From NCBI GenBank assembly GCA_951406725.2, contig OX597827.1, forward strand, positions 57,536,001 through 57,600,000: a stretch of DNA of 64,000 nucleotides. Reading direction: 5' to 3'. Positions 16,175-54,117 of the stretch are shown here, one piece after another; within the stretch, counting starts at the first letter, position 1, and each line of letters begins with the position of its first letter. This DNA comes from Octopus vulgaris (Eukaryota). A model generated the notes under the pieces. That model was not told the DNA's origin. It saw nothing but the letters and a program-made list of their open reading frames with translations, and did no database searches. Both the position numbers and the translations under genes were made by a program.

Positions 16175-16180
16175 ATGACA
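16175..16180 (+). CDS. Putative first coding exon (Met-Thr) of the Macro-RING-DTC gene
   Basis: AAC-ATG-ACA followed by a consensus GTAAGT donor; phase 0 fits the acceptor at 23497. Confidence 0.55.
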
Positions 16181-17633
16181 GTAAGTTTAAACAAGTTTCG
16201 GACGTCTGTATATATATATTTTTAAATTCGTTTTCTGTAGTTTTCTCATTTTCATTTCCATTGCTGTTTTCTCTTATAGTTTCATTTTATTTTCATTTTG
16301 TCTGTCAACACCTTCAAGTTAAAAGTGAAGTTTAGTTTATTTTTTAAAGACTTGTTAAATAAGAAAACGTTGTTGCGAGCTGCCCTATCGGTCGACCAGC
16401 TAAAAATAGTAGCCAAAATCTCTCTCAAATTAATACTCGTGTTTACAAAAAGGAATGACGACACATTGGTTAACGATCCGACTTCCTGAAATAATGATGA
16501 TGATTTCAAATTTTGACAGAAAGCCAGCAGTCACGTGGGACGGGGTAAGTCGATTACATTTGGCGGCAGTACTCAACGGGTACTTGTTTTGTTGGTCCTG
16601 AAAGGATGAAAAGCAAACTTGACATCGGTGGGATTTGAACTCAGAATGTAAAGGGTCGGAGCAGATACCGCCAAGAAATTTTTCCGACGCTCTAAACGAT
16701 GCTGAATCGCATTAAATCATATGTCTGTTTATTCGTTATTTGTAAATAAATATATTTTCGTGTGTTCATATCAAAACGTGCTGAAGTAGAACTCAGTATC
16801 AACACATTATCATTCATTGGCATTATGTCGCCACTAGAACTGAACAGTTATTCATACCTCTAAGTTAGATAAGATATGTGGCAGTTGTCAACTAAGAAAG
16901 TAGTTCACTTAACTGTGTTTACTCTTCCTTACGAAGACTGGTCTAGTGAATTATATAAACATAATTTGTCTTTTTACCACATAAGCCCCGAGATCTAAGT
17001 TTTAAAATATTTAAAGAAACATTGGCAACCGAAACATTTATTGTAGGCCAGCTCAAACAGTTGGCCCGATTAATCACTATAACAAAAAACGGCCAATTTA
17101 CTCGTCGAGGCCTTGCTGTTATAAAACAAAGATGTCGCGACTGATGTCATTACTCGAAACAAGTTTATTTTTTTCAAAGTGAAAATGCTTTCTTTAGATG
17201 GGCGCAAGGCAAAACAGGCACTGGTGACTTTTCGGGATTCAAAATTGTTTTCCTTTTGGTTGGGTTTGTTATTGGAAACTACTCCTGATAATTTTAATTA
17301 CTTTTTTACATTTCGTAGGCGAACTGTGACTGTAAACATGCCTTTTTGAGGAAGTAACAGTGACAATAAAAACAAAGACTACTGTTATATTAATTAAATT
17401 ACATGTTTAATTAGTAGACTGATGTGATTGCTGAAGCAGTATTTCTTCCGGCTCTTCGCGTTCCGAGTTCAAATCCCACTGTGGCCTACTCGGATGGTAG
17501 ACTTAATTTGTCACCAGGTTTAACACCCTGTCCTGTTATTAAGTGCTTCTGGCATAACTACAGTTTTCTGCCCCCCACCCCCGATGTTGGATGATCATAA
17601 CTTTCAGAAAAATTGATATTTTTTAATGAAATT

Positions 17634-18025
17634 GGATCTTTTCGGTTTGAACGGCAGTTTTTTCTAGCTGTGTTATATGAGATTGTCACCCATAATTATG
17701 ACCTAGTATAGATCTATTGTATTTCAATGTTTTAGGGTTAGGGGTGGGGGGAAGGGTATCTTTTTTTTTTTCAACTCAATCTGTTTCTTAAACGAAGGAC
17801 AGACATATTCATACGGCACAGAATGTTTTCACCTCAATAGACGTCATTGATTGGTTGAAATTGCAGAAATTGAAGAGAAAAACAACAACAAATATCTTAC
17901 AAACTATAGAATTTTCTTAATAAAGCCAAGAGAAAAGGTGTTTTATAAACACATTCCACCAGTATACGAAGTTTAAAAGTGTTTAGTTATCGTGGAAATT
18001 ATATTAAAAAACTGCCGTTCAAACC
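17634..18025. mobile_element. MITE, same family as 22951-23367; right TIR truncated
   Basis: GGATCTTTTCGGTTTGAACGGCAGTTTTT...AAAAACTGCCGTTCAAACC. Confidence 0.8.
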
Positions 18026-18884
18026 ATTAAATTTTCTACGAATACGTGTTATAACATGTAGATTCCGAATATACAAAACTTTGGGGGCGGGGAGTGTTTT
18101 AGGAGGGGTGGGGTGGGGAATTTCGAAAAAATTCACCCCCCTCTATCTAAATTGCTGACTTTGTGCCAAAAATTTGAAATCACTACAATAGAGCTGAAAT
18201 TACATATGCCCACAAAGACAAAATGCTTAGCGAATAGTAAAATTTGCTTAAGCTGATAGTGCTCCAGCATGGCCTTAGCTGTAATGGCTAATACAAAGTA
18301 AAGAAAAGAATATTTCAGTAGCAAAATTTTACCAGAAAAGAGCTTTCTTTCTCATTTTAATAATCACTACTCTCTCATTTCATTTTCACAGAATCCTGAA
18401 GGTGTTGGTACACTGCATGAGTGTTATATTCCCATTTGTTATTGTTATTAGTGAGATATAGTGCCATTTCAGTGTTCTTTGTGGAATTTGTGTTCATTTA
18501 GTTCCTGAGTTCAACTGCCAAAGATCATATTTGTGTTTCATTTTTGCGGGTCAATAAAAGACAAAATCAGTTGAGGACCAGGGTTGGTTTTGTAGAGTAC
18601 GACCTGTTCCCTAAAATATGCGGGCTCCCTGATTATTTCATTATTTTGTATTACTGAACATATATCACATACCCTGGAGACAGCAACAAAGTAAACCTTA
18701 TATGTATGTATATATGTGTGTGTATGTGTCTGTGTATAAAGAATAGTGGGGGTTTAGTTCACTTGTGATCTAAATGAATAGGTACGCTGAGTAAGTGCTA
18801 TAGTTGGTTGACCGTTATTTTGTCAAGATCACGGCTAAGGCTGGATCTATGGATCCTTACCAAGGTTTTGTTACAGCAAAATCA

Positions 18885-19428
18885 AAAACCAAGGCAAAAC
18901 GAGTATCTCAAGTCATTTAGAATAATTTAATTAGGGTAAGGTGAATTTGAAGTCTTACAGCCGTTTCTGCGATAACCCAAGTGGTAGGTTAACATGTCCA
19001 CACACTGGGCTTTCTTTCATCAGAGACAAGGTATGAATATTTTAGACAGGGAACATTTACAGTTTATGAGGAATAAAATAGAAGAATAAAGAGTAAAGGT
19101 AGTTAGAAGAATATAGGCAGGAGAATAATGTTAACAACTCATCTTTTTCCAGAGGATATAGATGTTGGTCAATACCACCTGGATTTACCTGGGATTTTAA
19201 CTAAGGACCTGTATCTTCATGGAAGTACTGACCAGCAATTTCTTAAAAACTGTAAATGTTTCCTGTCTAAAATATTAATACCTTGTCTCTGATGAAGGAA
19301 TATCCAGTGCACGGACATGCTAACCTACCACTTGGGTTATTGTAGAAACAGTTGTAAGACTTCAAATTCACCTTACCCTAATTAAATTATTTTAAATGAC
19401 CTGAGATATTCATTCTGCCTTGGTTTTT
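18885..19428. mobile_element. Foldback of ~190-bp arms (Penelope-like inverted terminal repeat); each arm carries a hammerhead motif
   Basis: 18885-19073 is the diverged reverse complement of 19238-19428; CTGATGA...GAAACAGTTGTA core. Confidence 0.7.
19285..19360 (+). ncRNA. Candidate minimal type-I hammerhead ribozyme (mirror copy at 18952-19027, minus strand)
   Basis: GTCT-CTGATGA-[stem II CCAGTG...CACTTGG]-GAAA-CAGTTG-TA-AGAC; stem I GTCT/AGAC. Confidence 0.55.
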
Positions 19429-19491
19429 CATATGTGTGTGTGTGTATGTATGTATATATATATATATATAAATATATAGGTGTGTGTGGTG

Positions 19492-19720
19492 AGGGCACAT
19501 GGCTTACTGATCAAGGTGTTGGACTCATGATCATAAGATTGTGGTTTCAATTCCTGGACTGGGCGACATGTGTTCTTGAGCAAAACACTTCATTTCACAT
19601 TGGTCCAGTCCACTCAGCTGGCAAAAATGAATAATCTTGCATCATACCGGTGTCCCATCCTGTTTAGGAATATATACGCCATGGAAATAGGGGAAACCAA
19701 CCTTATGAGAAGGAACTTTA
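19492..19720 (+). mobile_element. tRNA-derived SINE family C; second copy at ~60805-61115
   Basis: Shared TCATGATC(A/G)TAAG...TTGAGCAA...CCAGTCCACTCAGCTGGCAAAAATGA. Confidence 0.65.
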
Positions 19721-20571
19721 CTATATATTTATGAACTTAAAAAAATCTTGTCAGAATGTGTGACATCAGAATTATAAAAGTCTTTATGCATTGCCAATTC
19801 CTGATGGAAACAGAAGCATAGGAAGACCATGGCTTAGGTACAAAGATAAGCTTAAAACTAACCTGAAAGTGGCAAAAATTCCTATAGAAATATTTGAAAA
19901 AGCTGCATTGAATCCAATGAGTGGAGGTTGACTTGCTATAATCCCATGAAGATCTGTGAATTGGGTTGTCTAGATCTTCAAGAATTGAAAGAAAAAGACA
20001 AAGTCTCAAACTAACATGCCAGCTACATGGTATAACAGTTGTTTCTTTTGTTCAGTCTTAGACTTTGTCTTCAAATCATTGGCTGGATTAACCCTTTGGC
20101 ATTTAATCTGGCCATATCTGGCCAAAATATTCTGCCTCTTATATGGTCAAACTGACTAGATCCAACATCCTACGTATGCCCTACAATGTCATTCTAAAAC
20201 TAAACAAGCGCATTATCAAAATCTTGAAGCCACAAGATAATGCATGATAATTTTTTTTTTTAAATGTGAATAAGCTTTGCATTTGGTAGGATAACCTGAA
20301 TACTAAAGGATTAAAGTCACATTAGAGTTAAAAATAAAAATATTCCTTGATCCTCATATGTTGAAATCAACAAGAAAATCCATTAAAGGATCATAGATAA
20401 TTGCCACCTTCAAGAATAGAAAACAATGTCTGTTAATATTTGGATCTCTTCTGGGTCATCACCATTGACCAGCAAAATGACTTGTGTGGATGTAATGCTG
20501 TACTATCAGTTCATAAATCTTGAGTTCAAATCAACCATCGTGGAAAGCAGATGTAAATATGATGATGATGA

Positions 20572-21891
20572 TGGGTACCAGAAAGTAATGTCATATTTCC
20601 AAGTAAATAGCAACTGAAGAGGATCTACGTTAAAGTATTGGGGACTTATTGTGGTGGTTTAATAAACTTTGCTCTGCTATGCAAAATCATCTCAAGCGAA
20701 TTGGGAAAGTATATAAAGAAAGGAATGGGTGCCTCATGAGCTCCTGCCTAAGCATAAAGCATTGCATTAAACAATTTGCAAATCAGGAATGAAAAAGTAC
20801 GACTTCTTAATTAAATTGTAACAGATGATGAGAAATGGATAGTCTATGCTAACAGTAATTGTAAGAAGCAGTGGTGAAAATCCAGTTTCAACACCCAAAG
20901 AAGATCTTGCTTGTATTTGGTGAAATACCATAGGTCTTGTCCACTTCTAATTATTGGAACAAATGAAAAGAATCATTGCAGAACTTTATTATTAACAACT
21001 TGAATGTGTCAATCAAGTTTTGCTTGAAAATCATCCAGTTCTTGTTCAACAGAAATGGAGTCATCCTGCAACATGATATCACTATGTAATAATTTTTTGT
21101 CCTTGTGTAGCAAATGTGGTTTCTTATTTGCTTACCCCTAGAACAGTGGTTTTCAACCAGGGTTCCGCCAGTACAGTCCAGGGGTTCCGCAAGAAGTTAC
21201 AAAACTGCTAAAATTGGCAGTAATTTTTAATTCTCCTGTGCAGATATGTGTGCATAAGACTATTAAATTATTGCACAGGGGTTCCCCAAGCCAGTGGAAT
21301 GTTTCCTTGGGGTTCCGCTCCAGCAAAAAGTTTGAAAAGCACTGCCTTAGAAAGTAAGAGAAATGGCTAATATTTCCTTTGAAATTTGCTTTTGTTACAT
21401 TTATTCAAACCCCAAAGAATCCCTCTCAACACACGGCTATGATGCTTCCTAACTACTCATACTCATGATAAGAGATGCACTTATTGTCAGCCACCAAGGG
21501 ACATGCTAAAGTAGTTAAGGTCAAACAACTGACAAGCAAATCTGTGGTATTGAACAGAATATTCGCTGTAATGATATTTCTGCTTCGGCAACTCAGCACT
21601 GAATCTGTCTGAAATGTATTGGAAAATAGGTCAGTTCCAAAACATTGAGAAAACATTGGACAAAGCAAGGACAATGTTGAAACAGCACTTCAAACATTTT
21701 TCTCTTCTAAAGAATCTGATTGGGTTTTTTTTTCTTTTTGGCCCAAGAAATTAGGAAACTGGTTTCAAGGTGGGTAAGTGTTATTGTTAATGACGAAAAT
21801 TATATTTTGAATAAATAAATATTTTTACAATATGTTTTATGCTGATTTGAACCCATTACACAAAATGTGACATTACTTTTCAAGACCCCTA
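20572..21891 (+). mobile_element. Degenerate mariner transposon with nested insertions
   Basis: TIR core GAAAGTAATGTCA / TGACATTACTTTC; WVPHEL (20727), IVTDDEKW (20815) and LQHD (21066) remnants. Confidence 0.75.
21144..21344. mobile_element. hAT (Charlie/Buster-like) MITE with 8-bp TSD
   Basis: CAGTGGTTTTCAA...TTGAAAAGCACTG; TSD CCCTAGAA/CCTTAGAA; the empty site is visible in the paralogous element near 9712-9719. Confidence 0.85.
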
Positions 21892-22950
21892 ATATATATA
21901 TATATATATATCACGTGACCGAGCAGGCCATCAGATGTTGCTACACATCACTGGTCACAATGCGCTTCACATTGTTTTAGCTTTCACTGATGCCACCCCG
22001 CTGGCTAAGCAAGCAGGCCAACAGAAGAAAGCGTGAGAGAAAGTTATGGTGAAAGAGTACAGCAGGGATCACCACCACCCCCTGCCGGAGCCTTGTGGAG
22101 CTTTAGGTGTTTTCGCTCAATAAATACTCATAATGCCCGATCTGGGAATCGAAACCACGATCCTACGACTAGTCCGTTGCCCTAACCACTGGGCCATTGC
22201 GCCTCTATACACACACACACACACATATATACATATATATATATGTATTTCTTTACTACCCACAAGGGGCTAAACACAGAGGTGATAAACAAGGACAGAC
22301 AAACGGATTAAGTCGATTATATCGACCCCAGTGTGTAACTGGTACTTAATTTATCGACCCCGAAAGGATGAAAGGCAAAGTCGACCTCGGCGGAATTTGA
22401 ACTCAGAACGTAACGGCAGACGAATACGGCTACGCATTTCGCCCGACGTGCTAACGTTTCTGCCAGCTCGCTGCCTTACCATATATACATATATATACAT
22501 ATATATATATATCGTGTGCATATGTGTGCGTGTATATATGTATGTTTGTTTTCATTTTCATTTATGATAGAAACATTAAGCTGATGGGTTGCTCTATACT
22601 GTTGTAGAGTACAAATTTATCATTCTTATACAAGAATGTTGTTGACAGTCCGACAGTTTCTTAGCTGGCCAAAATTTTGGATTCACTGTCAACAACATTC
22701 TTGTTTAAGAATAATAAATGTGTGTGTGTGTATTTGTACTTACATATGAATGGACACGAGGCTGGACAGATGGCATGCTTCTGCACAGTTCCTGTCTACC
22801 AAATTCCATTCACAAAGTGTTTGGTTATCTGAGGCCTAAGATGCTAAACATCTTGACCACATAACCATACCGTTTACTTTTGTTGTTGTTTCTTCATCTT
22901 AATTGCATGTGACCAACAGGCATTGAACTCTAATATAGAAAGACACTAGT

Positions 22951-23367
22951 GGATCTTTTTGGTTTGAACGGCAGTTTTTCTAGTGGTGTCATATGAAATT
23001 GTCACCCATAATTATGACCCTAGTATCGATCTATTGCATTTCAATCTCTTTTAGGGTTAGGGTTAGGGGTGGGGGGAAGGGTATCTTTTTTTCTTCAGAA
23101 ATGTAAATTAAACCCAATCTGTTTCTTAAACGAGGGACTTATTCATACGGCACAGAATGTTGTTTACCTCAATGGACGTCAGTGATTGGTTGAAATTGCA
23201 GAAATTGAAGAAAAAAAACAACAAATATCTTACAAACTATAGAATTTTCTCAATAAAGCCAAGAGAAAAAGATGTTTTATTAACACATTCTACCAGTATA
23301 CGAAGTTTAAAATTTTTTAGTTACCTAGAAATTATGTTAAAAACTGCCGTTCAAACCGAAAAGATCT
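22951..23367. mobile_element. MITE with ~29-bp TIRs and ~8-bp TSD (Merlin-like GG termini); internal (TTAGGG)3
   Basis: GGATCTTTTTGGTTTGAACGGCAGTTTTT / AAAAACTGCCGTTCAAACCGAAAAGATCT; flanks ACACTAGT / ACACTAGC. Confidence 0.8.
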
Positions 23368-23496
23368 ACACTAGCTCCTTAATCAGAAAAATAATCCACT
23401 TCAAATACTGAAGATAATTGCATGTATATTGTATGTTGTTTTGCTTTTATTTTATTTGAATTCATTTTATTTTATTTTTATTTTCTTTCTTGTCAG

Positions 23497-23878
23497 GGCG
23501 TAAAATGTTCCCTGCATGGCTGTTGTATTGAGGCCTACATTGGTGACATCACTAAAGTGAAATGTGATGCTATTGTATGTGCAAGTGATAGTAGAGTTGC
23601 ATTAAATGCAGGTCTTTTGGGTGAAATAAAAAAAGCAGGCGGTTCACCGATATTAGAAGAAATTGACCGTAAACTGAAAAGGCTTCCTGGCAAAAATATC
23701 AAACCAGGGCAGGTTCTGGTGACAGGTGCTGGTAAAATGCATTGCGAATTTGTCATGTATATCAATGGGCCTGCAATATCAAGTGGAGACAAGACTATTG
23801 AATCTGCAATAATGACATGTTTGAAAGAAGCTGAAGCCAGGAAGTTAAAATCCATTGCCTTTCCTGCCCTTGGTTCTG
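23497..23878 (+). CDS. Macro-RING-DTC gene exon 2: macrodomain (N-terminal part)
   Basis: tgtcag|GGCGTA...TCTG|gttagt; IEAYIGDITKVKCDAIVCAS...AGG...PGQVLVTGAGKMHCEFVMYINGP...CLKEAEARKLKSIAFPALGSG shows macrodomain signature motifs. Confidence 0.92.
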
Positions 23879-24285
23879 GTTAGTATATATATATATGTAT
23901 ATGCATATATACATATATATTAATATAATATTTTTGGACTTTGTTTTGTCCATTTCTTTCACATTGTCATTGGTTGGACAAGTATAGAAATATTTATTCC
24001 TATCAGATAAACATACTACCACCACCCAAACCCTAGCAGTGCACCTACGTCTCTGTATCTTACCCACCAAACACTACACTAACCACTTTCTCTTCTGACT
24101 CATAACTGCATTTCCCTGGAACATCCTCCCTCTCTTTTCACCTTACCAGCTTTCTCCGGTATCAACCCATGGAAAAGTTCAAGCTAAACTTGAATGGCAT
24201 CTGAGAGTGTCTTGCAAAAGGTCATTGTCATCATTTTCCAATTAAAATAAATATATAAATAAACTATTAAAGTGTTTGTTTAGGA

Positions 24286-24504
24286 CAGTGGTTCTTGACC
24301 AGGGTCCTTATGACCTTTGGGGGTCCATATTAGATTTTGTTAAAATTTATGTGCAATAAAATTGGTTACACTTCTACAATATACAATTTTTTTTATACAA
24401 TTCCTAATAATATTCAATTATGAAAATATGGGACTTTTTTGAACATCAAATGTTTTTTAAGGTTTAGTTGGGGTCCATAAGCAATAAATGGTTGAGAACC
24501 ACTG
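24286..24504. mobile_element. hAT-like MITE
   Basis: CAGTGGTTCTTGACC...GGTTGAGAACCACTG; TSD GTTTAGGA/GTTTAAGA. Confidence 0.8.
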
Positions 24505-27500
24505 GTTTAAGATATGTTCAGGATTAGGGTATAAATAATGCTTCTAAACTAGCCAGCTTCTTCATTTCTACTGATGACTGTAATCTCAGTTCTGCCAGTA
24601 GAGTCACTAGTAATGCAAAGAGTAATACATCTGACAGAGAAATCTGGATACTAAAGAACATACCTGTTGACATCAAAATAAAATGTTAGTTTGAAATCAA
24701 ACTGCTTTCTGTGTGGCTTTTCAATGTCAGCATCATTAATGTATCATTTTATTTATTACCTTTTAGGGATGCTTTTATCTTGGCAGTATAAACTACCAAG
24801 CTAAGATCAATATCTAGTTAGTTCAACACACCACTATCTAGTTATTCTCTGGTCTGCTTGTTAAGTAAGTGACATAAAGAATGATTCAGGGTTTATAGGT
24901 TATGAAGTGAAAGCTCTGAAAACATACTCTAGAAACAAAACATTACATGAAGCATAGATGCAATGAAGTGTTAGAATGGGAAGAGACAACCTAAGGCGGT
25001 GATCTGGCAGAATCGTTAGCACGCCAGGTGAAATGCTTTGCAGTATTTTGTCTGCTGCTACGTTCTGAATTCAAATTCCGCTGAGGTTGACTTTGTCTTT
25101 CATCCTTTCGAGGTCGATAAATTAAATACCAGTTACACACTGGGGTCAATGTAATCGACTTAATCCCTTTGTCCTTGTTTGTCCCCTCTATGTTTAGCCC
25201 CTTGTGGGCAATAAAAAAATAAGAATGGGTAGGAATAACCTTTTTCAAGAAGCAGGCCAGATGAGACATGGTTCATCATTAGGCAGGCTGCACTACTAAA
25301 AAAAAAATTCAAGGTTCTTTTTCATTAGTATGCCATTCAGAAAAGTCCCATGAGCCACAGATTGCCCATGTCTATATTAGAGCAGGCACTCGTACACTTT
25401 CACATCAGATTTAACAGTTTTACTTTTTGTTTAACACTCAGTCAAACAAGTGTTGGTGCTATGAAAATAAATGGCCGGTACACTCTGTAATGTAGTTGGT
25501 GTTAGGAAGGGCATCCTAACAGCTACAGAAACCAAGTCAAGATAGACACTGGAGCAAGATGTGGGCTTCTTAACTGTCAGATCTTGTTGGACTCTCCAAC
25601 CCATGCTAGCATGGAAAGTAGATGTAAAATAAGGAGAAGGATGCTGATGATGGTGGTGATGGCAATGACAACTTAATTTTGCTTTTTTACACTTCCACAG
25701 CTTACTCTTATTTTTCACTTTATAACTTGCCTTCATTACATAGTCTCTGTAGTTGCCCATCCTGTTAGAAATAGCAACAAAATATCTTCAACAAATGGTA
25801 AATATCAAGTCACTTCATTCTACTACCACCACTGCCTTTCTTTTTCTTTTTTTAGTAATTTACTTTAATTTCCCATTCGTGTTTGACCATTTCCTCAGAC
25901 ATATTCCAAGGTGAACCAGCACTTGAGTACCACAAATAAAGTAGGCTAAAATTTGTAGTGCTTATAGTTTGGTACAAATGTCACAGTCTGAATTTGTGAT
26001 ATATAATTGGATTCTATGTCTGGGGGCCTTCTTCATCTTTAGTATTTTTCTTACTCTAACATTATTTTACTTCAAAGATTGTATTTTCTTCTTGTTATTG
26101 TATGTGGGTACCAAGCTGGAGTTAAAATGTGAAAAAGAAATTGTTTTAGTGTAAAAAGAAATGTTTCAAAGTTTTAGATGTAGTGCAAAAGTGTAGTTGT
26201 GGCCAAGAGGTCGGCTGTTTATATCCTATCATGAGTACTCTTGTAGCCAAGACACTTTAACTTTGATGATCAGGTTCAACTGGCTATCAGAAAATGCTAT
26301 AGAGCAGGGTAACTCACTGCTGTAAGCACCAGCAGTTGTAAATTTAACAAACATTTTGTTAGTTTGCAGTGCTAAGTTAATGCTTAGTTGAAGGCCTGGG
26401 AAAGCCAATCTGAAACTACTTAACTGTAATGCTGTTATGAAGATTGTGGTCAACCAGGGTTATGGGATTAACTACATGCCTCATATTTATATATCTGTAT
26501 ATCATCATCTTCATCATCATTTAACCCTTTTGTTACCAACCCGGCTGAAACTGGCTCTGGCTTTGTAGTACAAATGTCTTGTTTTCATAAATTTTGAATT
26601 AAAATCTTCCCCCAAACCTTAGTCACAATTTATGTTCCTATCACTAGCTTAATGATAACTAAGTTATTTTACTAAATTCTTTGTTACATCTAAAATAATT
26701 GAAAGAAACACAGATCATCTCAAAATAAATAATTGAAAGAAACACAGAGCATCTCAAAATAAATAATTGAAAGAAACACAGAGCATCTCAAAATAAATAT
26801 GGCATGAGTTGGATGGTTTGGCAAGAGCTGGCAAGCCTGAAAACTGTGCCAAGCTCCACTTTCTTTTGGCATGTTTTTTATAGCTGGATGCCTTTCCTAA
26901 TGCCAACCACTTCACAGAGTAGACTGGGTGCTTTCCATGTGGCACCAGCACTGATGAGATCTGTTTTGGCATGGTTTTCATGGCTAGATGTCCTTCCTAA
27001 TGCCAACCATTTTGCAGAGTGGACTGGGTGCTTTTTACATTGCACTAGCACCAGTGTGGTCTTTTTGACTGGATGCCCTTCCTAATGCCAACCACTTTAC
27101 AGGGCGGACTGAGAGCTTTTTATGTGGCAGCAGGCACCAGCCTACAAAATCTCCAATATATTACAATGAACAGTGTGGCTGGACAGAAAAAAACGAAAGC
27201 AGGATAGTTACAGCTGAAACACCTTTCATGTCATGGCCAACTTCATCTAAGCTAAAGAGCAAACAAGTATCTACAAGTAGGCTGTGTATGCAATTTTAGA
27301 CATGCGTTGTTGAGAAGTTTGCTTTTAAACCACACCATCCTAGTCCCTGTTCCACAACATGGCACCTCAGGCAAGCATTGTTCACTACAATTCCAATATA
27401 TTATTAGATAATAAATCATATGGTATACACCTTACTGGTAAAGCATGTTCACTTTCAAAGTGCTTGTTGGGTATTTGGTTAATGAGAAAGACAGAAGACG

Positions 27501-29559: not shown

Positions 29560-29597
<38 letters not shown>

Positions 29598-29644
29598 GAT
29601 ATGTATATATATTTACATATTTATTTATATATATATATTTATTT

Positions 29645-30597: not shown

Positions 30598-30805
30598 GGC
30601 TGTTGGGAATCCCTTATGATACATGTGTTCAACAGTATGTTAGTGCCATAAAAAACTGGCCCACTTCTCTACCAAAAACCATTCATTTTGTTCTCTTCGA
30701 TGACGATATGTTCAATAAAATAAAAGATTCTTTCAAAGCTAATTTCAGCAAGTGGCATCCATCGACTGCAGATTCAACATCAAATGCAAATACTGAAGAG
30801 AAAAG
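30598..30805 (+). CDS. Macro-RING-DTC gene exon 3: end of macrodomain and start of linker
   Basis: tttcag|GGCTG...AAAAG|gtaaac; GLLGIPYDTCVQQYVSAIKNW...KTIHFVLFDDDMFNKIKDSF completes the macro fold; phase 1 in, phase 2 out. Confidence 0.9.
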
Positions 30806-31058
30806 GTAAACTTATACCATCACCAGTTTATATACTCTTATTTGTCCAACATGAAAGGTGTAGTTGTGTGGTAAGGAGTTTGCTTCCCAAGCATATGGTT
30901 TTGGTTTCAGTCCCACTGTATTGTACCTTGGGTAGGTGTCTTCTACTATCGCATTGGGTTGACCAAAGCCTTGTACGGGTAGAGATGTAAATGCAAAGAT
31001 ATTCAAGTTAGACAGGTCAATTTATAAAGACTAATTTGCATATCCCATCATTTACTTA

Positions 31059-31108
<50 letters not shown>

Positions 31109-31529
31109 TAGATAGAAATGGCAAGACAACAAAAGAATGAAAGCGACCTCGATATTATATAAATAGAGGAATTTATCTGTAAATATATTATGTGACAATT
31201 ATATTTACAGATTTATATATATATATGTGGAGGCACATGGCCTAGTGGTTAGAGCAGTGGATTCGGGATCGTGGGTTCGAATCTCAGACCGTGCAATGTG
31301 TGTGTTTATGAGCGAAACACCTAAGCTCCATGCGGTTCTGGCAGAAGGTAATGACAAACTTCTGCTGACTTTTTCACCACAACTTTCTCTCACGCTTTCC
31401 TCCTGCATCTTGCAGCTCACCTGCAACAGACCAGCGTCCTGTACAGGTGGGGAACCTATACGCCAAGGAAACTGGCCCTATGAGCCAGGCATGGCTCGAG
31501 AAGAAACACACATTTATATATATATATAT

Positions 31530-32580
31530 AGTGAGAATTTACAAAAAAACAAAAGACGGGTGTGTAAACAACAAACACATGTATTAGTTTAATGCTCAGG
31601 AAGTGAGAAAGTCTTTTACGTTTCGAGCCTATGCTCCTCAACAGAAAGGAACACAGAAATAAACCGGGATAGAAAATAGAAAAGGTTTAGTGGCTAGCAA
31701 TCTATCATGGTGAATGCTGGACAGAGGGATCACATAGGAAGAAGGGGAGATAATAAAGTAGTGGTGATCCCAAAACAAAGGTGCGCATGTGTGTGTATGT
31801 GAGAGCGTGTACGTGCATGTGGAAGGGTGCTGGTGACCTTGATGTGTGGATGATGGTGTAGGTGCTGGGAAATGGTCAGGGTGGGGTGGGATAATGAGGG
31901 AGGTGGTGACGATGAAGGGAGAAGGTAGGAAGTAGGTATATGAAAAGGGGAGGGGGAGTTAAACCCATGTGGCACAAAGGAGCTAAGAGAAGATTAATCC
32001 CTGTTCACAGCAAAGACGGGAGTTCGGATGGCTCCTGTGCAAGGACAATCTGAACGCAGACAGGTGTTGTAAAGGATGACTTTTTTCTTAGAGCAGAAAT
32101 GGCATGAGACCGGGGTGTTGTTGCTGAGTCTGATGTCTTGGAGGTGTTCCGCGAACTGGTCAGCCAAGCGGTGTCCTATTTGACTGATGTACAGAGAGAG
32201 CAGGAGATGCAGTAGATGACGTTGCTAGCAGTGTAGGTGAAGGAATCAGTGATATGATGGGTGTCTGTGAGGAGGGTGGTGTTGGAGAGGTAAGGGCAAG
32301 CGTGGGAGCAGGGGAACGAGCTGGGTTAGGGAAGAAGCTGTGGACCAAGAAGTTTCGTAGGTTGTGGGCTTGTTTGAAGGAGGGGAAGTATTGGACTGTA
32401 GTCGCCAGAAGGCTCAGAGAATGGTGCATTGGAGAGGCAGAGTGGTAGGTGAGGGGTGATGGCGGTGGAAGAGAGCTGATGCACAGCCCACGAAACATGC
32501 TCTGGCAAGGGCGGTGTGAATAGTGGTGAGGGGATATCCACGTAGGATGTAGTGAGCCATGAGTTGAGACTGAGTCTCAA
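31530..32580 (-). mobile_element. Penelope-like retroelement 3' remnant with frameshifted GIY-YIG endonuclease and terminal hammerhead motif; inverted terminal copy at ~33153-33250
   Basis: Minus-strand FKQAHNLRNFLVHS; SFTYTASNVIYCISCSLC; LYISQIGHRLADQFAEHLQDIRLSNNTPVSCHF. Confidence 0.8.
31611..31648 (-). ncRNA. Candidate minimal hammerhead ribozyme of the Penelope-like element
   Basis: Minus strand CTTT-CTGTTGA-G-GAGC-ATAG-GCTC-GAAA-CG-TA-AAAG; stems I and II pair; core is the variant CUGUUGA. Confidence 0.55.
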
Positions 32581-33107
32581 AGTATATATATATATATATA
32601 TATATATATAAGAGGGGGTACTGAAAAGTGCTCAGCTTTGGGTAAAAGAAAATACAGGAGGATTAATTAATTATGATTTTATTCAACATATTCTCCTCTC
32701 AGGTTGACACACTGCAGCAGTCCTTCAGTTTTTCTGTATCCTGTAAAAGAATTCAGAATGTTCAGCTTCCAACCAGGCCTTTTCAGCACCCTCTTGTGTG
32801 TGTATGCATGATACTGTGTCCTTGCCTTGGCAACAAAAATGAAGTGTGTGTTACAAAGTTATCTTCCCAACCACATGGTTTCTGGTTCAGTCCTACAGCA
32901 TGGCACCTTAAGAAAGTGTCTTCTACTGTAGCCCTGGGCCAGCCAAAAATCTTGTGAATGGACTTGGTAAACAAAAACTGAAAGAACCCTGTCATATGTA
33001 TGTTTGTGTATATATGTATGTACATATATATTTGATGTGTGTGTGGATGTACCTCTATATGTCTGTACATACATATATATAAATACATACACATGCATTT
33101 ATTTATA

Positions 33108-33146
<39 letters not shown>

Positions 33147-33245
33147 TATATAAAAGACTTTTTCTATTCCTGAGCGCTATACTAATACATTTGTTTGTTT
33201 GTACACCACCTGCCTTCATCTTTTGTTTATTTTTGTAAACTTTCC

Positions 33246-33286
<41 letters not shown>

Positions 33287-33405
33287 TATTTAGAGAAAGA
33301 GACATACAGAGAATGTATGTATACTCATACACTGTTGTCTGGTGGATTAAATCAGTAATGTTTATCTGAGGAAGTCCTCAATATTTCTGTGATTTTTTAT
33401 GTAAA

Positions 33406-33697
33406 TCTTTATATATAAAAGTGAAGTTGTGTGAGTGTCTGTCTCCTACGATTTAGATTCCTAACTACTACCACATTTTGCGGTGCAGTTTAACCAAAAG
33501 CGGGTATCTTATAGTCGTGATTCATATCAAGCCCTTCTGGGTATTAGTGCGCATCTACAATTCAAAAAAAAAATTACCATCATTTTTTCCCATTTTTAAT
33601 GCATTTTTTTGCTATTATATAAGGGAAGTAACTCTCTAAAAATGCTTATATAGTTATTTCCCTTACAAACCCGAGCAACACCGGGCGATACTGCTAG
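33406..33697 (+). mobile_element. Non-autonomous Helitron
   Basis: A|TCTTTATATATAAAA start; CCCGAGCAACACCGGG hairpin then CTAG|T. Confidence 0.8.
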
Positions 33698-34090
33698 TCA
33701 GATATAAATTTAAATGTCAACAAATGTGATATCACTAGAAACAAGCCCATATGTAAAATATGTAGGGAAATGATGTTTTTCATGTCTTTCTGATTTCTTG
33801 TGCTTCCAATTTTTTTCATTTCACACAACATATCCCTTTAGCATTTAAACTGACCAGATCCTGCCCCGATATTATACTTGTTTTATGTTGAAATTGGCCA
33901 TATTCGGCCACTCACAGCTGTCCTGTGATGTCATACTAAAGATAAATAAGCCCACCTTTGAAATCCCAATGCGAAAAGATAATGCGTTAGCAATTCTAAA
34001 CGTTGTGAATAAATAAGCATTACATTAGACAGAGTAATCTGAATGCTAAAGGGATATATATATATATGTCTTTATTCATTTATTCGTTAG

Positions 34091-34526
34091 CCGAAAAAAG
34101 AAGTCCAGTGGGAAATCAGGTCACAGAAACCAGCCTGAGAAACATGGAAGAGATGCGTCATATATGAACGATACATCAGACGTGGACAGTGCATCAGATG
34201 TAGAGGACAGATCAGATGTGGAAGATGCTTCAGAAGCGAAAGGTGCATCTGGAGGACAGAATGGAGATTGTCCGATCTGCCTGTGCCCAATTACTGATGC
34301 TAAAACTTTGTCCCTTTGCGGACATGTATTCTGTCAGCAGTGCATTGACCATAGTTTCTCTGCGATTGGTCAATATTGTCCGATATGTCTAAAAGTCTAC
34401 GGAGTGATTACAGGCAATCAGCCATCTTCTTCGATGACGGTTCAAGACTCATTTAGTCATTTACCTGGTTTTGAAAATTCTCATTCATACCAGATATCAT
34501 ACCACATTCCCGGCGGAGTACAAGGT
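34091..34526 (+). CDS. Macro-RING-DTC gene exon 4: basic/acidic linker, C3HC4 RING, start of Deltex C-terminal domain (DTX3L-like E3 ligase)
   Basis: cgttag|CCGAAAA...CAAGGT|gtaagt; CPICLCPITDAKTLSLCGHVFCQQCI...CPICLKVYGVITGNQP...LPGF...ISYHIPGGVQG. Confidence 0.93.
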
Positions 34527-35335
34527 GTAAGTAATTCTATTTTTCGTCTTTTCTTTCTTCTTATTTTTTTAAAAATTGAAGTGATGACAGAAACGTTTGT
34601 AGCACCGAATTGAAGTGATGACAGAAACGTTTAAAGGTGGCGAGCTGGCAGAAATGTTAGCACACCGGGTGAAATGCTTAGCAGTATTTCGTCTGCCACT
34701 ATGTTCTGAGTTCAAATTCCACCAAGGTCGACTTTGCCTTTCATCCTTTTGGGGTCGATAAATTAAGTACCAGTTACGCACTGGGTCGATATAATTGAAT
34801 TAATCCGTTTGTCTGTCCTTGTTTGTCCCCTCTGTTTATCGCCCCTTGTGGGCAATAAAGAAATAAACGTTTATAGCTCACAGTAGGACACTATTTCTGC
34901 TCTTTTTTTTCAACATGACTGTTGCAATATAAAATGCACCCAATACACTCTGTAAAGTGGTTGGCTTTGAGAAGGGCATCCAGCCATGGAAACCATGCCT
35001 AAACAGACCTGATGTGGCCCCTGGCCTTGCCACTTCCTGTCAGGCTGTCCAACCCATGCCAGCATGGAAAACGAATGTTAAATGATGATGATGTTAATAT
35101 TACTATTCAAGAGTTGTATGAGGTATCAATGATGAGGTGGCTCAAATACCATTTCATTCATGCAATTAGACTTAATTCAATTGTTGTTTTGCCTCACATA
35201 GTTTCAAATTGAGTAAACCTATGATCAAAGACATTCCAGCTGTGATCATGTCATCTTTTTTTTTTCTCAGTTATGTTGTAGATGGTCACCACAAAGTCAA
35301 GTCTTTGTCATTGTGTGGTGGCTTATGTCCCTTAA

Positions 35336-35552
35336 CCCTTCCGTTGCCAACCCGGCTGAAACCAGCTCTGGCTCTTTAGTATAAATGTCTTGTTTTCATA
35401 AGTTTTGAATTCAAATTTTCCACCAAATCTTAGTTAAAATTTATGTTCCTAACACTAGCTTAATGATAACGAAGTTAATTTACTAAATTCTTTGTTATAT
35501 ATAAAATAATTGAAAGAAACACAGAGCATCTCAAAATACAGTAATGAAAGGG
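35336..35552. mobile_element. piggyBac-like MITE copy
   Basis: TTAA|CCCTT...AAAGGG|TTAA; reverse complement of the 10733-10954 family. Confidence 0.75.
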
Positions 35553-36503
35553 TTAATGCTCCTGGTAGGGCCTCAAATGCTCTTAGACAGGTCAAAAGAT
35601 TGAGGCCTCATTAATATGGGACACCTCTTCCAAGATTAATGACTTGTAGGGACACCGTATTTTGTTACACAACCATGATGTACTACAAAGTATATTAAAT
35701 GGTTTTTGAGTCAGTACTGTGTTCTGTATTAGCAGTGCTGTTAAATCACTTTTTAAGGTTATCTGTAAAGATAACGTTGATAAGTGCTTCTTCCAAGAAG
35801 TGAAAATAGGTTTGCATGCATAGGGCTCAACTTATATACTTATATATAAAAAAAAAAAAAATAAAAAAAACGGTTTATAGAAGAATTGATGACAATTTAA
35901 AAGCAGGAACACCTAGCAGAGGAAGACTCTTCTTCAGGTAAACATATGTCAGGCCCTAACCTTGAATTTGCAAGGGAGGTGGAAAAAGAGGGTGCCCTAA
36001 AAATAGGTGGATGTTGGATAATGAAACAGAACTGTGAAAGTAGGGATCCAACTAGAGTGAAACAGAAAGACAACATAAAGTTGAAAACAGTTGAGAAAAG
36101 TTGTTTGTGGTTTATACTTCATAGGTAACAAAGGACCTCAGTAAGTCTGTTATAGACGAGACTGCATCATCCAATGCATTCTTGCTCTTTATTTTTTTCT
36201 TTTTTTAAAGATGACCAAGTAGGATTTGAAGGATATTTAGCTGTTATTTTTCTAACAGGTTTGCGTGTCTATGACGAGCCTTTCTCATTAACTTCAGACT
36301 TGTTTTATTTACACATTTTTATTGCAATTTGTGAACCAGGATTAGTTATAGGTGTCCAACAAGCCAGTCACTGGTTCACTGCATTTCTGATGATGCGGAT
36401 AAGAAGGGATTGTCTCTAACCCAGGTAGAGCAAACATCACAAGGGATTTCATTCAAGAGTCCCAGCTTATTGGATTTCTTGATAATTTATGCATCATCAA
36501 AGG

Positions 36504-36544
<41 letters not shown>

Positions 36545-37554
36545 TATGACAGGCTTTTAGGCTTTCACATTATTTTCTTCCAAATTCCACTCCCAAAAGT
36601 AGCCATCAGTCTGGGGCAGTGAGAGACTTGCCCTGGCTGTTGTGCTGTGGGTTTAAACTTAGAGCTACATATTTTCAAAATAAACTGCTCGACCACACGG
36701 CCATACCTGCATCCGTGACTTACCCAATGGCAAATAGTTGTGACTTAACATTTCTTAAGATGTTCAGATAGGTAGGCAGGCTTCTGCAATAGCAAAAAAA
36801 AGGGAAGAAGCTTGATGTGAAATCCAAGTCACAGAAATCATCCCCCAAATATGAAAATGCTCTACCTGCACTTCTTTGAGTCTCAGTTCTACAACTAGTA
36901 CTGTTCCTGGAAGACAAACTCTAGATTGTCCAGTTTACCTATGCCCATTAGTAAAGCTAAAATTTTACCCCAATTTAGACATATTCTACCTGTTGTACAT
37001 AGATAATAATTTGTGAAGAAATAAATTTTTCTTCAATGTAGGCTACTAATCTGTTACACGAAACTTTTTCCTCCATCATAAGGAACTTCATCTCTGCTCC
37101 GTGAGACAACACAAGTATTTATGAATACGACAGTGTTGTTACTTACTTTCCTGAATTACATTGCACTACCAATGTTATTTACTTGGAACTAGGTGAAGCA
37201 ATGAGGGAACTTTACTAAGTTGCTCAACCTGCTAGAAATAGCAGCCATATATCCTTTAAATTACATCCTAATGTCTTAAGTTAGGGAAGAACCCATTAGA
37301 TAGTATAGTCCTGCTGGGATGATCACTCATCTAAAACATCTTTGAGCAGAGGTCTATTTGGTTTGAGTAAATCCAATTGTGTGGAGTTAAACAATAACTA
37401 CGAAATGTTGTTATACATGTTTTTAAATTACATGTGATCTAATGTAAATTATTCAAACATATTGTACAGTATTATTTCTAATTTATCTTTCTAAAACTCT
37501 TTTTTTATGAACTGATATTGTTTATTAAGAATTGCTTTCTTTTTTGTTCCAAAG

Positions 37555-37772
37555 AAAAACCACCCAAATCCTGGTAAAAGTTACTATGGAACAGATCGAA
37601 CAGCTTACCTTCCAAAAACTGAACAAGGTACCACAGTTTTAAAAATGCTTCAGTTAGCCTTCAGTAGACGGCTGATATTTACAGTGGGAAAATCTCGAAC
37701 CACAAACATGGAAAATATGGTTACATGGAATGACATTCATCACAAAACTAGCCGTATTGGAGGTCCCAGTGG
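37555..37772 (+). CDS. Macro-RING-DTC gene exon 5: Deltex C-terminal domain (absent from the ORF track)
   Basis: ccaaag|AAAAACCAC...AGTGG|gtaaat; [72 protein letters not shown]. Confidence 0.95.
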
Positions 37773-38098
37773 GTAAATAACATTTAAATTATTTAAATCC
37801 TTTATTTGCCTTATACTACTCACCAGCTCAGTAAATAAATTTAAAATTATACCAAAAACTCGAAAACAGCATTATGAGGGGTTGCTGGAAAGTTCCTGGC
37901 TTTGGGTAAAAGAAAATATAGTGTGAAATTGAAATCTTCAATAATAATAGAATATTGAAAATAATGTTTTGATAAAAATGTATTAAAATTGGGATTTATA
38001 AAAACTTTTTAGACAGTGTAGACTTAAATAATTGCTTTTAGTGAAAGTTGCATGCTTCAAACTAAATAATAAGCAGCTTTCTTTACTATAGTGTAGAA

Positions 38099-38591
38099 CA
38101 GGCATCACCAAACCTTTTTCACAGCAGGCCAGATAATTGAGAGAATGATGAGCACAATACAGTGAATACACAAAAAATATAGACATAACATATTTATTTA
38201 CCAAAAATTATCAAAGAAGGCGACGTTAGCAATAAGATAATTATATCACACCCAATGCACACATATCTGAATCTCACAAACTAAACAGCAAAAAAGGTTA
38301 AAGAGATTTGTGAAACTGGTGTTTAGGTTTTAAGATATCATCAGTATTTGCTTTAGAATTGCTGTAGCCAATCAAGAGAATTTCTTTCAAATGTTCATCA
38401 GTCAACTTCATTCGACGTGCTGACTTCACAAACATCAGTTTTGAAAATGTTTGCTTGCAGGCATAAATTGTTCAAAACACTGATGCCATACCAGAGGCAA
38501 ATGAACTCTCATTGCAGGTACTTACACAAAAGGTACAGTGCAGCGATGGGCTAAATGAACTGACCTCGCGAACTGTAGTTTGGTAGCCCTG
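38099..38591 (-). mobile_element. hAT (SPIN/Charlie-like) deletion derivative retaining the transposase C-terminal remnant
   Basis: CAGGCATCACCAAAC...GTTTGGTAGCCCTG; TSD GTGTAGAA/GTATAGAA; minus-strand ASVF*TIYACKQTFSKLMFVKSARRMKLTDEHL. Confidence 0.8.
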
Positions 38592-38882
38592 GTATAGAAG
38601 ATGGGGAGATATACGATTGTGAAAGAAAATTGAATTCAAGGGAATTAATTCTGTTTGTCACTAAGAAACATGTTGGCTACTTACATTAGCTAAGGAATAG
38701 CAAGTAGAATAACTTTTTCTCTTTTTACAATTAAATGATTCAGTTGTGGTCATCAAAGTATTAAGAGAATTACTGATGACAGTAAAAGCTCATGGATAAT
38801 ATGTATCTTAATTTTTTGGCTTAAATTGTCTCCAAAAATTTATACCACCACATATAACATCTAATGTTATACTGCTGCTACA

Positions 38883-39254
38883 TCTCTCTCTATATAAACG
38901 GCAGTTTGTCTGTGCGTCTGTTTGCTTGTACCCTCACCCTGACCACGGCTTTCAACCGATTCTGATGAAACTTGACACACACATAGCCCAATGTCATAAT
39001 TCAAAACTAACGCAGCGAAAATTTTGAAAAGTTCCCCCAGTTCTGAAAAAAGTCGATAAATTCGACATGGGGTCGAGAATCAGGAACACAAACCACAAAC
39101 TGTGTAGGGGACGCAACTCCACCTTTTTTAACTATCAAAAAAAATTTACCATCATTTTTTTCCATTTTTTTGCTATTTTTTGGCTATAACTCTCTAAAAA
39201 TGCTTTATAGTTATTTCCCTTACAAACCTGAGCAACGCCGGGCGATACTGCTAG
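38883..39254 (+). mobile_element. Non-autonomous Helitron; 3' end shared with 33406-33697
   Basis: A|TC start; CCTGAGCAACGCCGGG hairpin, CTAG|T end. Confidence 0.8.
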
Positions 39255-39514
39255 TAATAATATATAATAAAATATATTGCTTTTTAATATTCCATTTTAT
39301 ATAAAAATATATGGATAAAATATTATTACAAAAATATAAATTAATCTATGTTTTTGTTACTTATCATTTGTCTTGCTCGCTTACGTTCTGGTGTTTGCTA
39401 AATTTTCTTGAGAACATTTCTTAGTGGTAAGACCATAGCAGATCTACTTCTAGCATAAGGGTTATCCACATAGTGGTCATCCCTCTCATATGTATATATA
39501 TATGTGTGTGTGTA

Positions 39515-39871
39515 TATAATTTAGAGAAAAAAATGTATTAAACTATTCATTCAATAAAGAAAGATGTTATACACACCATATAGAAAACATATACTATAAA
39601 AATACCTTATTTTAAAAATCAATGAAGTACAATAAATAGTAAATAGTAGTAAAAAGACTATGCACGTTTCATGGCTATATTTTCAAATAGATAATAATAA
39701 TAAAATCAATTCAATTCAAAATTAAATTGAACTTACTACTATTTACTATTTATTGTACTTTATTGATTTAAAATAAGGTTTTTTTTTATAGTACATGTTT
39801 TCTATATGGTGTGAATAACATCTTTCTTTATTGAATTGTTTAATAGTTTTTTTTCTCTAAATTATATACAT

Positions 39872-39872
<1 letters not shown>
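39515..39872. repeat. AT-rich inverted repeat pair (foldback) flanked by (TA)n
   Basis: ~39515-39652 is the reverse complement of ~39733-39870. Confidence 0.75.
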
Positions 39873-39919
<47 letters not shown>

Positions 39920-39925
39920 ATATAC

Positions 39926-39971
<46 letters not shown>

Positions 39972-39972
<1 letters not shown>

Positions 39973-40240
39973 AAAAAATCAAGATAGAAAATACTAAAAT
40001 AATTTTATAAAAAAACAATTCAGTACCGGTTTCAGTCATTGAGACTTTTTCAACTGTAACAATTAAATAATTAAATTTTTAAAAATTAAAAGTTTTTTTA
40101 AAAGAATATTTGTATAGTGTTCAAATACAAGTGGCATTTTCTGTTAATTATTTGTTACAGTTGAAAAAGTCTCAATGACTGAAACCAGTTCTGAAATGTT
40201 TTTTATAAAATTATTTTAGCATTTTCTATCTTGACTTTTT
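39972..40240. repeat. Inverted repeat pair with a degenerate hammerhead-like motif
   Basis: ~39972-40066 is the reverse complement of ~40148-40240. Confidence 0.7.
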
Positions 40241-40892
40241 TTTTCCACATATATCAACTCGTGTTCGTTTTCATCCTTATAAATACATATATATATATTA
40301 TATAAAATCTGTTCTGTCTGTCTGTGTGTGTGTTTTCTAGGATCTTGGGTATCCTCCATCCAATTGCGCTCAAATATAATAATGTAGATACTGATGGTAT
40401 CAGGGCATGTATAAGTCTTGAAAAAATTACAAAAATCGATTCCAGGTGAGAAAGTGATCAATAAAGCTATGGGAACGTGCATTTGTATGTGCAAGTACAT
40501 CAGTTGTTGCAATCGATACTACGCATACATGAGAAAAATGCATGTGCAGTTTGCGCAAAGAAAGCCGGCTGGCTTGAAATAATGCTACAAAATGGGACGG
40601 TCGGACAAGTTGTTTTGAGAAAATTTGGTTTAAATGTTTGACAACTCGGCACCATCCATTGGACGGTGGGGGTGGGGGGCATTTTGCTTGTATATATATA
40701 TATATATATAAAGTTATATACAATGCACTTTATTGTGCTTTGTTATGCACATGGTCTCCCCGTCCATGGAAAAATTGTCTTGCATGAAACCAGGCTGTGG
40801 TGCGAATAATGGTTGTGGATCGCTGCTTAGAATAACAGAGACAAAATAAAATTTCTGTTTTCTATTCTTAAATATTTTTTCATCATCATATA

Positions 40893-41297
40893 GGCGCAAG
40901 AGTGGCTGTGTAGTAAGAAGCTTGCTTTTCAACCACATGGCCCCAGATTCAGTCCCACTGCATGGCACCTTGAGCAAGTATCTTTTACTATAGCTTCGGG
41001 CCGACCAAAGCCTTGTGAGTGGATTTGTTAGTAGGAAACTGAAAGAAGCCCATTGTATATATATAAATATATATATGTGTGTGTGTGTGTCTTTGTATTA
41101 TGTCTCCCATCACCACTTGACAGCCGGTGTTGGTGTGTTTATGTCCTCATAACCCAACGGTTCAGCTAAAAGAGACCAATAGAATAAGTACTAGACTTAA
41201 AAAAATATAAATCCTGGGATTACTTTGTTCAACTAAAACTCAAGGTGATGCTCCAGCATGGCCACAGTCAAATGACTGAAACAAGTAAAAGAATAAA
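40893..41297 (+). mobile_element. tRNA-derived SINE family A copy ending at the last acceptor of the DTX-like gene
   Basis: Full head-to-tail match to family A. Confidence 0.85.
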
Positions 41298-41324
41298 GTC
41301 ATTTTTTTTTTCGTTTTTTCCTAG

Positions 41325-41442
41325 ATTTGGTTACCCAGATGATGATTATTTGAACAGAGTGACCAGTGAGTTAAGCGCTAAAGGTATCACCCCAGAAGAT
41401 GTTGCAGACAAGAGAGTAAAATCAAAGATCAACATCACTTGA
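41325..41442 (+). CDS. Macro-RING-DTC gene terminal exon (end of DTC domain)
   Basis: tcctag|ATTTGGTTAC...ACTTGA; FGYPDDDYLNRVTSELSAKGI is the Deltex C-terminal motif; AATAAA at 41582-41587. Confidence 0.95.

Positions 41443-54066: not shown

Positions 54067-54117
<51 letters not shown>

Follow-up and report, generated by a model that had tools for sequence, protein, structure and literature searches.

A single-chain macrodomain-RING-DTC protein of Octopus vulgaris, a compact relative of macrodomain-bearing DTX3L and a candidate reader-writer of ADP-ribose marks

Does a single octopus gene encode both a macrodomain and a Deltex-type ubiquitin ligase and, if so, where does such a protein come from and what could it do? 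The question is raised by a locus in a 64,000-nucleotide stretch of Octopus vulgaris DNA (assembly GCA_951406725.2, contig OX597827.1, positions 57,536,001 to 57,600,000 of the forward strand; hereafter the window, numbered from its first letter), in which a preliminary description made from the letters alone had outlined a six-exon gene for a protein of 455 amino acids. We find by Pfam that the domain order of this protein is macrodomain, linker, C3HC4 RING and Deltex C-terminal domain (DTC). This is the layout of invertebrate macrodomain-bearing DTX3L proteins, with the macrodomain N-terminal to the RING-DTC in one chain and no WWE or PARP domain. Based on its active-site residues, the protein would act as a single-chain reader-writer of ADP-ribose marks, a reading to which we give a probability of roughly 60%.

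All six exons are present at the positions proposed for them, every intron is of the GT-AG type, and the joined 1368 nucleotides encode 455 amino acids and a stop codon with no internal stop. When exons are searched singly with Pfam, the DTC profile continues in register from exon 4 (profile positions 1-38) through exon 5 (40-110) to exon 6 (113-133). An in-frame TGA lies 9 nucleotides 5' of the ATG. The features are the following.

16175..16180, plus strand: coding exon 1 (Met-Thr), its start shared with the database models for O. vulgaris and O. sinensis
23497..23878, plus strand: exon 2, macrodomain residues 3-130, ending in loop 2 at a phase-1 intron (Pfam PF01661, expectation value (E) 1.6e-15; alignment to human PARP14 macrodomains); contains Asp19 (23545), Asp33 at the catalytic Asn position (23587) and Gly41 (23611)
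30598..30805, plus strand: exon 3, remainder of the macrodomain, where Leu131-Leu132 leave the lid without an aromatic residue, and first part of the linker; no Pfam match
34091..34526, plus strand: exon 4, linker rich in Ser, Asp and Lys with predicted disorder (predicted local distance difference test, pLDDT), C3HC4 RING (34269-34388) and start of the DTC (from 34410), by Pfam
37555..37772, plus strand: exon 5, DTC core with catalytic His406 (37738); PF18102, E 3.9e-31, and alignment to 3pg6 and 6y22
41325..41442, plus strand: exon 6, end of the DTC with Phe418 and catalytic Glu432 (41368), stop codon
41582 and 42302: polyA-type hexamers downstream of the exon 6 stop

A tblastn search of the window with 279 proteins, including long DTX3L- and PARP14-like ones, matched only PLPBP exons and coding exons 2-6 of this gene, and revealed no exon for an RNA recognition motif (RRM), KH, WWE or PARP domain. 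Pfam likewise gave no RRM, KH, WWE or PARP match in the protein, the macrodomain of which begins at about residue 10. The reported lack of these domains is thus confirmed. The possibility, raised at the outset, that the exons belong to a longer PARP14-like gene is rejected on the basis of the single macrodomain, the stop after the DTC and the absence of WWE and PARP (ADP-ribosyltransferase, ART) exons from the window.

Database models agree with this structure to different degrees. The O. sinensis RefSeq protein XP_036364898.1, named DTX3L, also has 455 amino acids, 443 of which are identical to ours, with 12 substitutions and no insertion or deletion; as P0006 it served as stand-in for the octopus protein in searches and folding. 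The O. vulgaris GenBank model CAI9733114.1 (435 amino acids) shares the 30805/34091 junction. It uses a donor after 23818 (CAT/GTTTGA) rather than 23878 (CTG/GTTAGT), thereby skipping 60 nucleotides (23819-23878). We prefer the six-exon model because the alternative donor is weaker and its use removes 20 amino acids of the macrodomain core, with one helix, one strand and a portion of loop 2; the shortened exon 2 probably reflects either a mistake in annotation or a minor isoform. Exon 4 is a 100% match to an O. vulgaris protein named probable DTX3, and Octopus databases already list the gene under the name DTX3L or DTX3. Among relatives, an Argonauta hians model of 463 amino acids has the same layout, and the Logan proteins P0003, P0007, P0009 and P0010, which cluster with octopods in trees, are whole Macro-RING-DTC frames of 434-461 amino acids on contigs of 1.6-2.3 kb. 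As the octopus gene spans 25 kb, we infer that these contigs are spliced transcripts. P0003 is almost the same as the C-terminal portion of the Sepia pharaonis model CAE1281248.1, which joins yggS to the second half of the macrodomain and the RING-DTC; this is likely a false gene fusion, and suggests that yggS and the Macro-RING-DTC gene adjoin in cuttlefish too. The O. bimaculoides entry is a 194-amino-acid piece without the macrodomain.

An AlphaFold2 model of P0006 (22-row alignment; mean pLDDT 80.7, predicted template modelling score (pTM) 0.46) shows two ordered parts and a low-confidence linker. The macrodomain (1-185) and the RING-DTC are ordered, linker residues 186-255 have pLDDT <50, and the part from exon 3 forms a helix (136-148), a strand (157-162) and a second helix (165-178). 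The pTM suggests that macrodomain and RING-DTC take up no fixed arrangement relative to each other in the model. Foldseek ranks Deltex RING-DTC or DTC structures first (template modelling score 0.95 to the DTX3L DTC) and macrodomains next. By sequence, the solved structures follow in the order DTX3L DTC (3pg6, E 2.3e-44), DTX2 and DTX1 (1e-39), and PARP14 macrodomains. DTX3L is thus closer than DTX1/2 among solved structures; a RING-DTC tree, from which vertebrate DTX3 rows were left out, had no resolved backbone.

Pfam places the RING at 258-298 and the DTC at 306-438 (E 1.8e-56), the C-terminal layout of Deltex E3 ligases. All eight zinc ligands are present in C3HC4 order (C259, C262, C275, H277, C280, C283, C295 and C298). 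In human Deltex proteins, ADP-ribose is bound in the DTC of the RING-DTC, a His/Glu pair of the DTC is catalytic, ubiquitin is placed on the 3'-OH of the adenine-side ribose, and modified targets are proteins or nucleic acids (PMC7615817, PMC10810221). Based on alignment to 3pg6 and 6y22, His406 corresponds to DTX3L H707 and DTX2 H582, Glu432 to DTX3L E733 and DTX2 E608, and Phe418 occupies the position of DTX3L Y719, the DTX3L numbers having been obtained by counting back along the 3pg6 alignment. Among the 153 Macro+DTC proteins described below, octopus included, the His is conserved in 142 and the Glu in 137.

In the macrodomain, Asp19, which we take to be the adenine-binding residue, and Gly41 are retained; the catalytic Asn is replaced by Asp33, Leu38 stands at the His position, and the loop-2 aromatic residue is replaced by Leu132. 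Published criteria for MacroD-type hydrolases (erasers) are Asn/Ser and Gly flanking loop 1, and a hydrophobic plus an aromatic residue in loop 2 (PMC10221186). With Asp33, Gly41 and Leu131-Leu132, the octopus macrodomain departs from this signature at two points, and its pocket is predicted to be of a non-hydrolase type resembling readers. In PARP9 macrodomain 1 (MD1), N140D raised the affinity for ADP-ribose about 4-fold and cut hydrolysis, and F244I, with loss of the aromatic lid, markedly lowered affinity and also lowered hydrolysis (bioRxiv 10.64898/2026.08.12.744356). Octopus Asp33 was paired with N140 by spacing and through the PARP14 MD1 alignment. Because the octopus macrodomain carries changes of both kinds, binding of ADP-ribose is likely but not sure. 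PARP14 is the top macrodomain sequence match, and the fold is that of PARP14 MD1 (an eraser), PARP14 MD2/MD3 (readers) and macroH2A1.1, the pocket resembling the PARP14 and macroH2A1.1 readers. The macroPARP PARP14 differs in having three macrodomains, a WWE and an ART domain, compared with one macrodomain and neither WWE nor ART in the octopus protein.

We propose that the macrodomain would bind ADP-ribose marks without erasing them, and that the RING-DTC would add ubiquitin to ADP-ribose on the same target. Since both are expected to grip the adenine end of ADP-ribose, the two domains could probably not hold one mark simultaneously. The macrodomain may instead tether the protein on one mark, the 70-residue flexible linker allowing the RING-DTC to reach another mark or a nearby lysine, and a catalytically dead macrodomain could hold the ubiquitin-ADP-ribose product rather than erase it. 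Innate immunity downstream of mono-ADP-ribosylating PARPs would be the likeliest setting, a suggestion drawn from human data and from a co-expression table for Aplysia in which a transcript labelled DTX3L, known by this label and not by its domain layout, falls in an antiviral-type module (PMC8195618). The immune or DNA-damage role named in the preliminary description is conjectural. PARP-domain matches in the octopus genome number at least nine at at least five loci and could supply the marks. The minimal reader-writer of the preliminary description is thus kept insofar as the residues fit, with His406/Glu432 intact and a predicted non-hydrolase pocket, and is given up insofar as it was framed as a fusion.

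That framing, in which the PARP9/DTX3L module had been joined into one chain, is not supported and is rejected in view of the distribution of the layout and the literature. In a profile search of 1.84 billion representatives at 50% identity, Macro and DTC occur together in 135 of the best 150 representatives, as scored with our own hidden Markov models; as the profile was built from Macro-DTC proteins, this is a lower bound on clusters and not a frequency. These 135 carry from 1 to 5 macrodomains each, and in 22 a single macrodomain lies inside the first 40 residues. Among the 120 of 300 word-search matches that were listed, precomputed Macro+DTC combinations occur in, among others, Xenia, Saccoglossus, Ptychodera, Brachionus, Haliotis, Patella, Gigantopelta and Babylonia, and none of the vertebrate DTX3L proteins listed has a macrodomain. 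Fifteen of 20 representatives looked up could be named, as gastropods, bivalves, a brittle star, a hemichordate and amphioxus. The metazoan search suggested earlier thus places macrodomain-bearing DTX3L in cnidarians, rotifers, molluscs, echinoderms, hemichordates and amphioxus, and the layout is old and widespread. PARP9 is confined to jawed vertebrates, and PARP14 is found in cnidarians and molluscs (PMC10221186). A 2026 preprint describes the macrodomain-bearing state of DTX3L as the earlier one, lost when PARP9 arose, and proposes in its results and the legend to Fig. 1d that PARP9 took over the job of the DTX3L macrodomain (bioRxiv 10.64898/2026.04.23.720386).

The invertebrate proteins of that preprint share with the octopus protein a macrodomain and RING-DTC in one chain; most of them carry an RRM, whereas octopus has neither RRM nor KH. 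Pfam searches of 11 sequences gave KH_DTX3L, Macro, RING and DTC for the amphioxus member, and PARP14-type RRMs, two Macro, RING and DTC for a freshwater mussel member, which ties the Macro-DTC group to both DTX3L and PARP14. Most likely, the octopus protein is a trimmed descendant of a longer RRM/KH-Macro-RING-DTC ancestor. A quick macrodomain tree (77 rows), with a warning for a long-branch pair, did not separate an MD1 from an MD2/3 origin, and only three of 611 candidates were longer relatives of the macrodomain part, two of them fish PARP14, too few to place it. Six proteins (P0128, P0130, P0131, P0138, P0150 and P0261) have two or three DTC units per chain, mostly each with its own RING, and no macrodomain; they may be genuine tandem ligases or the product of gene models that were merged.

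Human DTX3L/PARP9 also has a RING-DTC with the His707/Glu733 pair and a macrodomain coupled to the ligase. It consists of two chains, with RRM and KH domains at the N terminus of DTX3L, an inactive PARP domain, and eraser and reader macrodomains, as opposed to one chain without RRM or KH and with one macrodomain, predicted to be a reader, in octopus. Vertebrate-type DTX3L shares its locus with PARP9, whereas the upstream neighbour in octopus is PLPBP. DTX1, DTX2, DTX4 and Drosophila Deltex share the catalytic pair and an N-terminal ADP-ribose-type reader domain, but have WWE domains in place of the macrodomain, and lower similarity (E 1e-39).

A literature search, mostly of papers outside subscription, returned the DTX3L preprint (bioRxiv 10.64898/2026.04.23.720386) as the only published work on an invertebrate Macro-DTC protein and no biochemical study of one. 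The architecture has thus been noted in print, and the suggestion that it was already characterized holds to that extent only. Cephalopods, gastropods and bivalves are unmentioned in the main text of the preprint, and its available part contains no discussion of macrodomain pocket residues; the available parts of PMC12583694, PMC12687431 and PMC13224862 contain no invertebrate Macro-DTC protein.

To compare the octopus protein with its relatives, we defined a compact form as one N-terminal macrodomain in a protein of 380-805 amino acids. There are 33 clean compact members among 153 Macro+DTC proteins (an earlier count of 36 included fragments), next to 119 others and one ambiguous fragment row that was set aside. 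A strict eraser rule requiring two glycines, passed by 64/153, was replaced by a published looser rule, passed by 82/153. By the latter, the eraser signature is found in 0/33 compact members and in 82/119 others (38/69 among single-macrodomain proteins with a long N terminus), rows that contain near-duplicates and related species and are not independent. Gly occupies the Asn position in 13/33 compact members, and several pockets are strongly degenerate. Asp19 is retained in 27/33 compact members and in all five coleoid-group sequences. RING-DTC trees unite the five coleoid-group proteins in a supported clade (99/92). Forcing this group together with seven gastropod compact proteins was rejected by an approximately unbiased test (p-AU 0.018), which was chosen after the first tree had been seen and is suggestive only, and the macrodomain tree likewise separates the two with weak support. 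The compact form may thus have more than one origin, as far as these alignments indicate. The placement of the coleoid RING-DTC beside two cnidarian sequences (95/90), based on 186 columns with an unsettled bootstrap, was set aside as evidence of ancestry.

The octopus genome contains three DTC loci: besides the window gene, there is one on C25, which is Deltex-like, and a further gene on C14. The C25 locus (C25:24,233,605-24,235,807, plus strand) has Deltex-like RING-DTC exons with the WNEIHH motif as in DTX1/2 and is, by this motif, likely a WWE-type Deltex. In the C14 paralogue (20,643,735-20,606,870, minus strand), about 32 kb separate a macrodomain exon from a RING exon and a DTC exon downstream of it. 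The gene has very long exons of low complexity, with open frames of 904 and 548 amino acids, and its last DTC exon was not found within the 80 kb searched. The paralogue's macrodomain retains the Asn, Gly-Gly and Phe, with Ser before the Phe and Ser in place of the adenine Asp, and Asn stands at the DTC His position. Judged by these residues, its losses look opposite to those of the window gene, the macrodomain being closer to an eraser and the DTC His gone. In both genes, and in 12 MD1-like macrodomain exons checked on C1, a phase-1 intron falls at the same loop-2 glycine; MD2-like exons and a macroH2A-like exon lack it. This shared intron hints that the window macrodomain may descend from an MD1-type eraser.

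The genome also contains large tandem arrays of PARP14-like macrodomain exons, on C1 at about 5-9 Mb, 206-207 Mb and 215-216 Mb and on C29 at 31.8 Mb, which make up most of 76 Macro matches; one 150-kb stretch holds one MD1-like and at least seven MD2-like repeats. The PARP-domain search, which gives lower bounds, found no match on C1 and none on C14, and the C1 arrays may be macrodomain arrays without a transferase domain.

Several observations weigh against a reader-writer. The aromatic lid is lost (Leu132), a change of the kind that lowered PARP9 MD1 affinity in F244I, and loop 1 reads NAG followed by two leucines and is not glycine-rich. The macrodomain changes much faster than the RING-DTC: differences from O. 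sinensis number 8/185 residues in the macrodomain versus 0/200 in the RING-DTC (Fisher p 0.003; linker 4/70), and identity to three Logan relatives is 23-34% in the macrodomain versus 55-59% in the DTC. At the level of residues, this could be explained by decay or equally by an arms race. The last RING cysteine is followed by Leu, a residue found there in three of the Macro+DTC proteins counted, and ubiquitylation of lysines may be weaker as a result. Finally, in DTX2 the DTC needs no WWE domains to recruit ADP-ribosylated targets (PMC7615817), and the octopus macrodomain therefore need not be a reader.

Much of this evidence, together with the degenerate pockets of several compact relatives, would also suit a macrodomain that no longer binds ADP-ribose and is either decaying or a protein-binding module, in a DTX3-type ligase that finds ADP-ribose by its DTC alone. 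We regard this, the main rival, as a possible but doubtful explanation, because the macrodomain fold is whole and confidently modelled, Asp19-Ile20, Gly41 and the loop-2 glycines are retained in 4/5 coleoid-group proteins, and human reader macrodomains without the aromatic residue still bind ADP-ribose (bioRxiv 10.64898/2026.08.12.744356). It is unlikely that the macrodomain retains some hydrolase activity as part of a coupled eraser and writer, as in PARP9 MD1 paired with DTX3L and, judged by signature, in the majority of longer invertebrate relatives. The octopus domain retains Gly41 and agrees with MD1-type macrodomains in its loop-2 intron and in the length of loop 1, and in the same preprint PARP9 MD2 gained some RNA activity by a single change and N140D kept reduced protein activity, but Asn, His and aromatic residue are all missing here and none of the compact members passes the eraser test. 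A role mainly as a Notch-pathway ligase, with the ADP-ribose link secondary, appears very improbable: Deltex ligases do regulate Notch (PMC12687431), but the protein lacks a WWE domain, a separate locus carries the DTX1/2 motif, and the best solved-structure match is DTX3L. Hardly credible is an artefactual join of separate macrodomain and RING-DTC genes or of parts of a longer PARP14-like gene, for although the octopus junctions rest on sequence models rather than O. vulgaris reads, the Sepia model is probably a false fusion in its own right and no macrodomain is present in the O. bimaculoides entry, the same junctions occur in two Octopus models, the Argonauta model is full-length, relatives have complete frames on short contigs, and the window holds a stop upstream of the ATG and no additional exons.

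The reader-writer reading of the octopus protein can be extended to a broader picture, which we offer tentatively and consider rather doubtful. Invertebrates would repeatedly have made stripped reader-writers from an RNA-binding, self-erasing Macro-DTX3L, the RRM/KH and the hydrolase residues being lost together each time. Octopus would split the work over two paralogues, a writer with a dead eraser and an eraser-like macrodomain with a dead DTC, an arrangement in two genes that would parallel the vertebrate DTX3L/PARP9 split but have arisen independently of it. Our literature search found neither the eraser-less compact pattern nor its repeated origin nor the paralogue with opposite losses in print.

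Elsewhere in the window, PLPBP/yggS exons lie upstream on the same strand (3511-8521, plus), with their own stop near 8520. Downstream, on the opposite strand, long coding frames at 50985-58733 (minus), including one of 646 amino acids at 56793-58733, presumably belong to a gene resembling ZFYVE28/Lst2. A frame at 13402-13944 (plus) is a putative retroelement integrase fragment and one at 52605-53114 (minus) a putative mariner-type transposase fragment.

In conclusion, for specialists the octopus gene is useful more than surprising. If the proposed mechanism is true, the 455-amino-acid protein would be a small natural system for the steering of a Deltex ligase to ADP-ribosylated targets by a macrodomain, which in humans needs the large oligomeric DTX3L/PARP9 complex. 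It would also support the view that macrodomain-guided ubiquitylation of ADP-ribose predates vertebrates and that the family expanded in molluscs.

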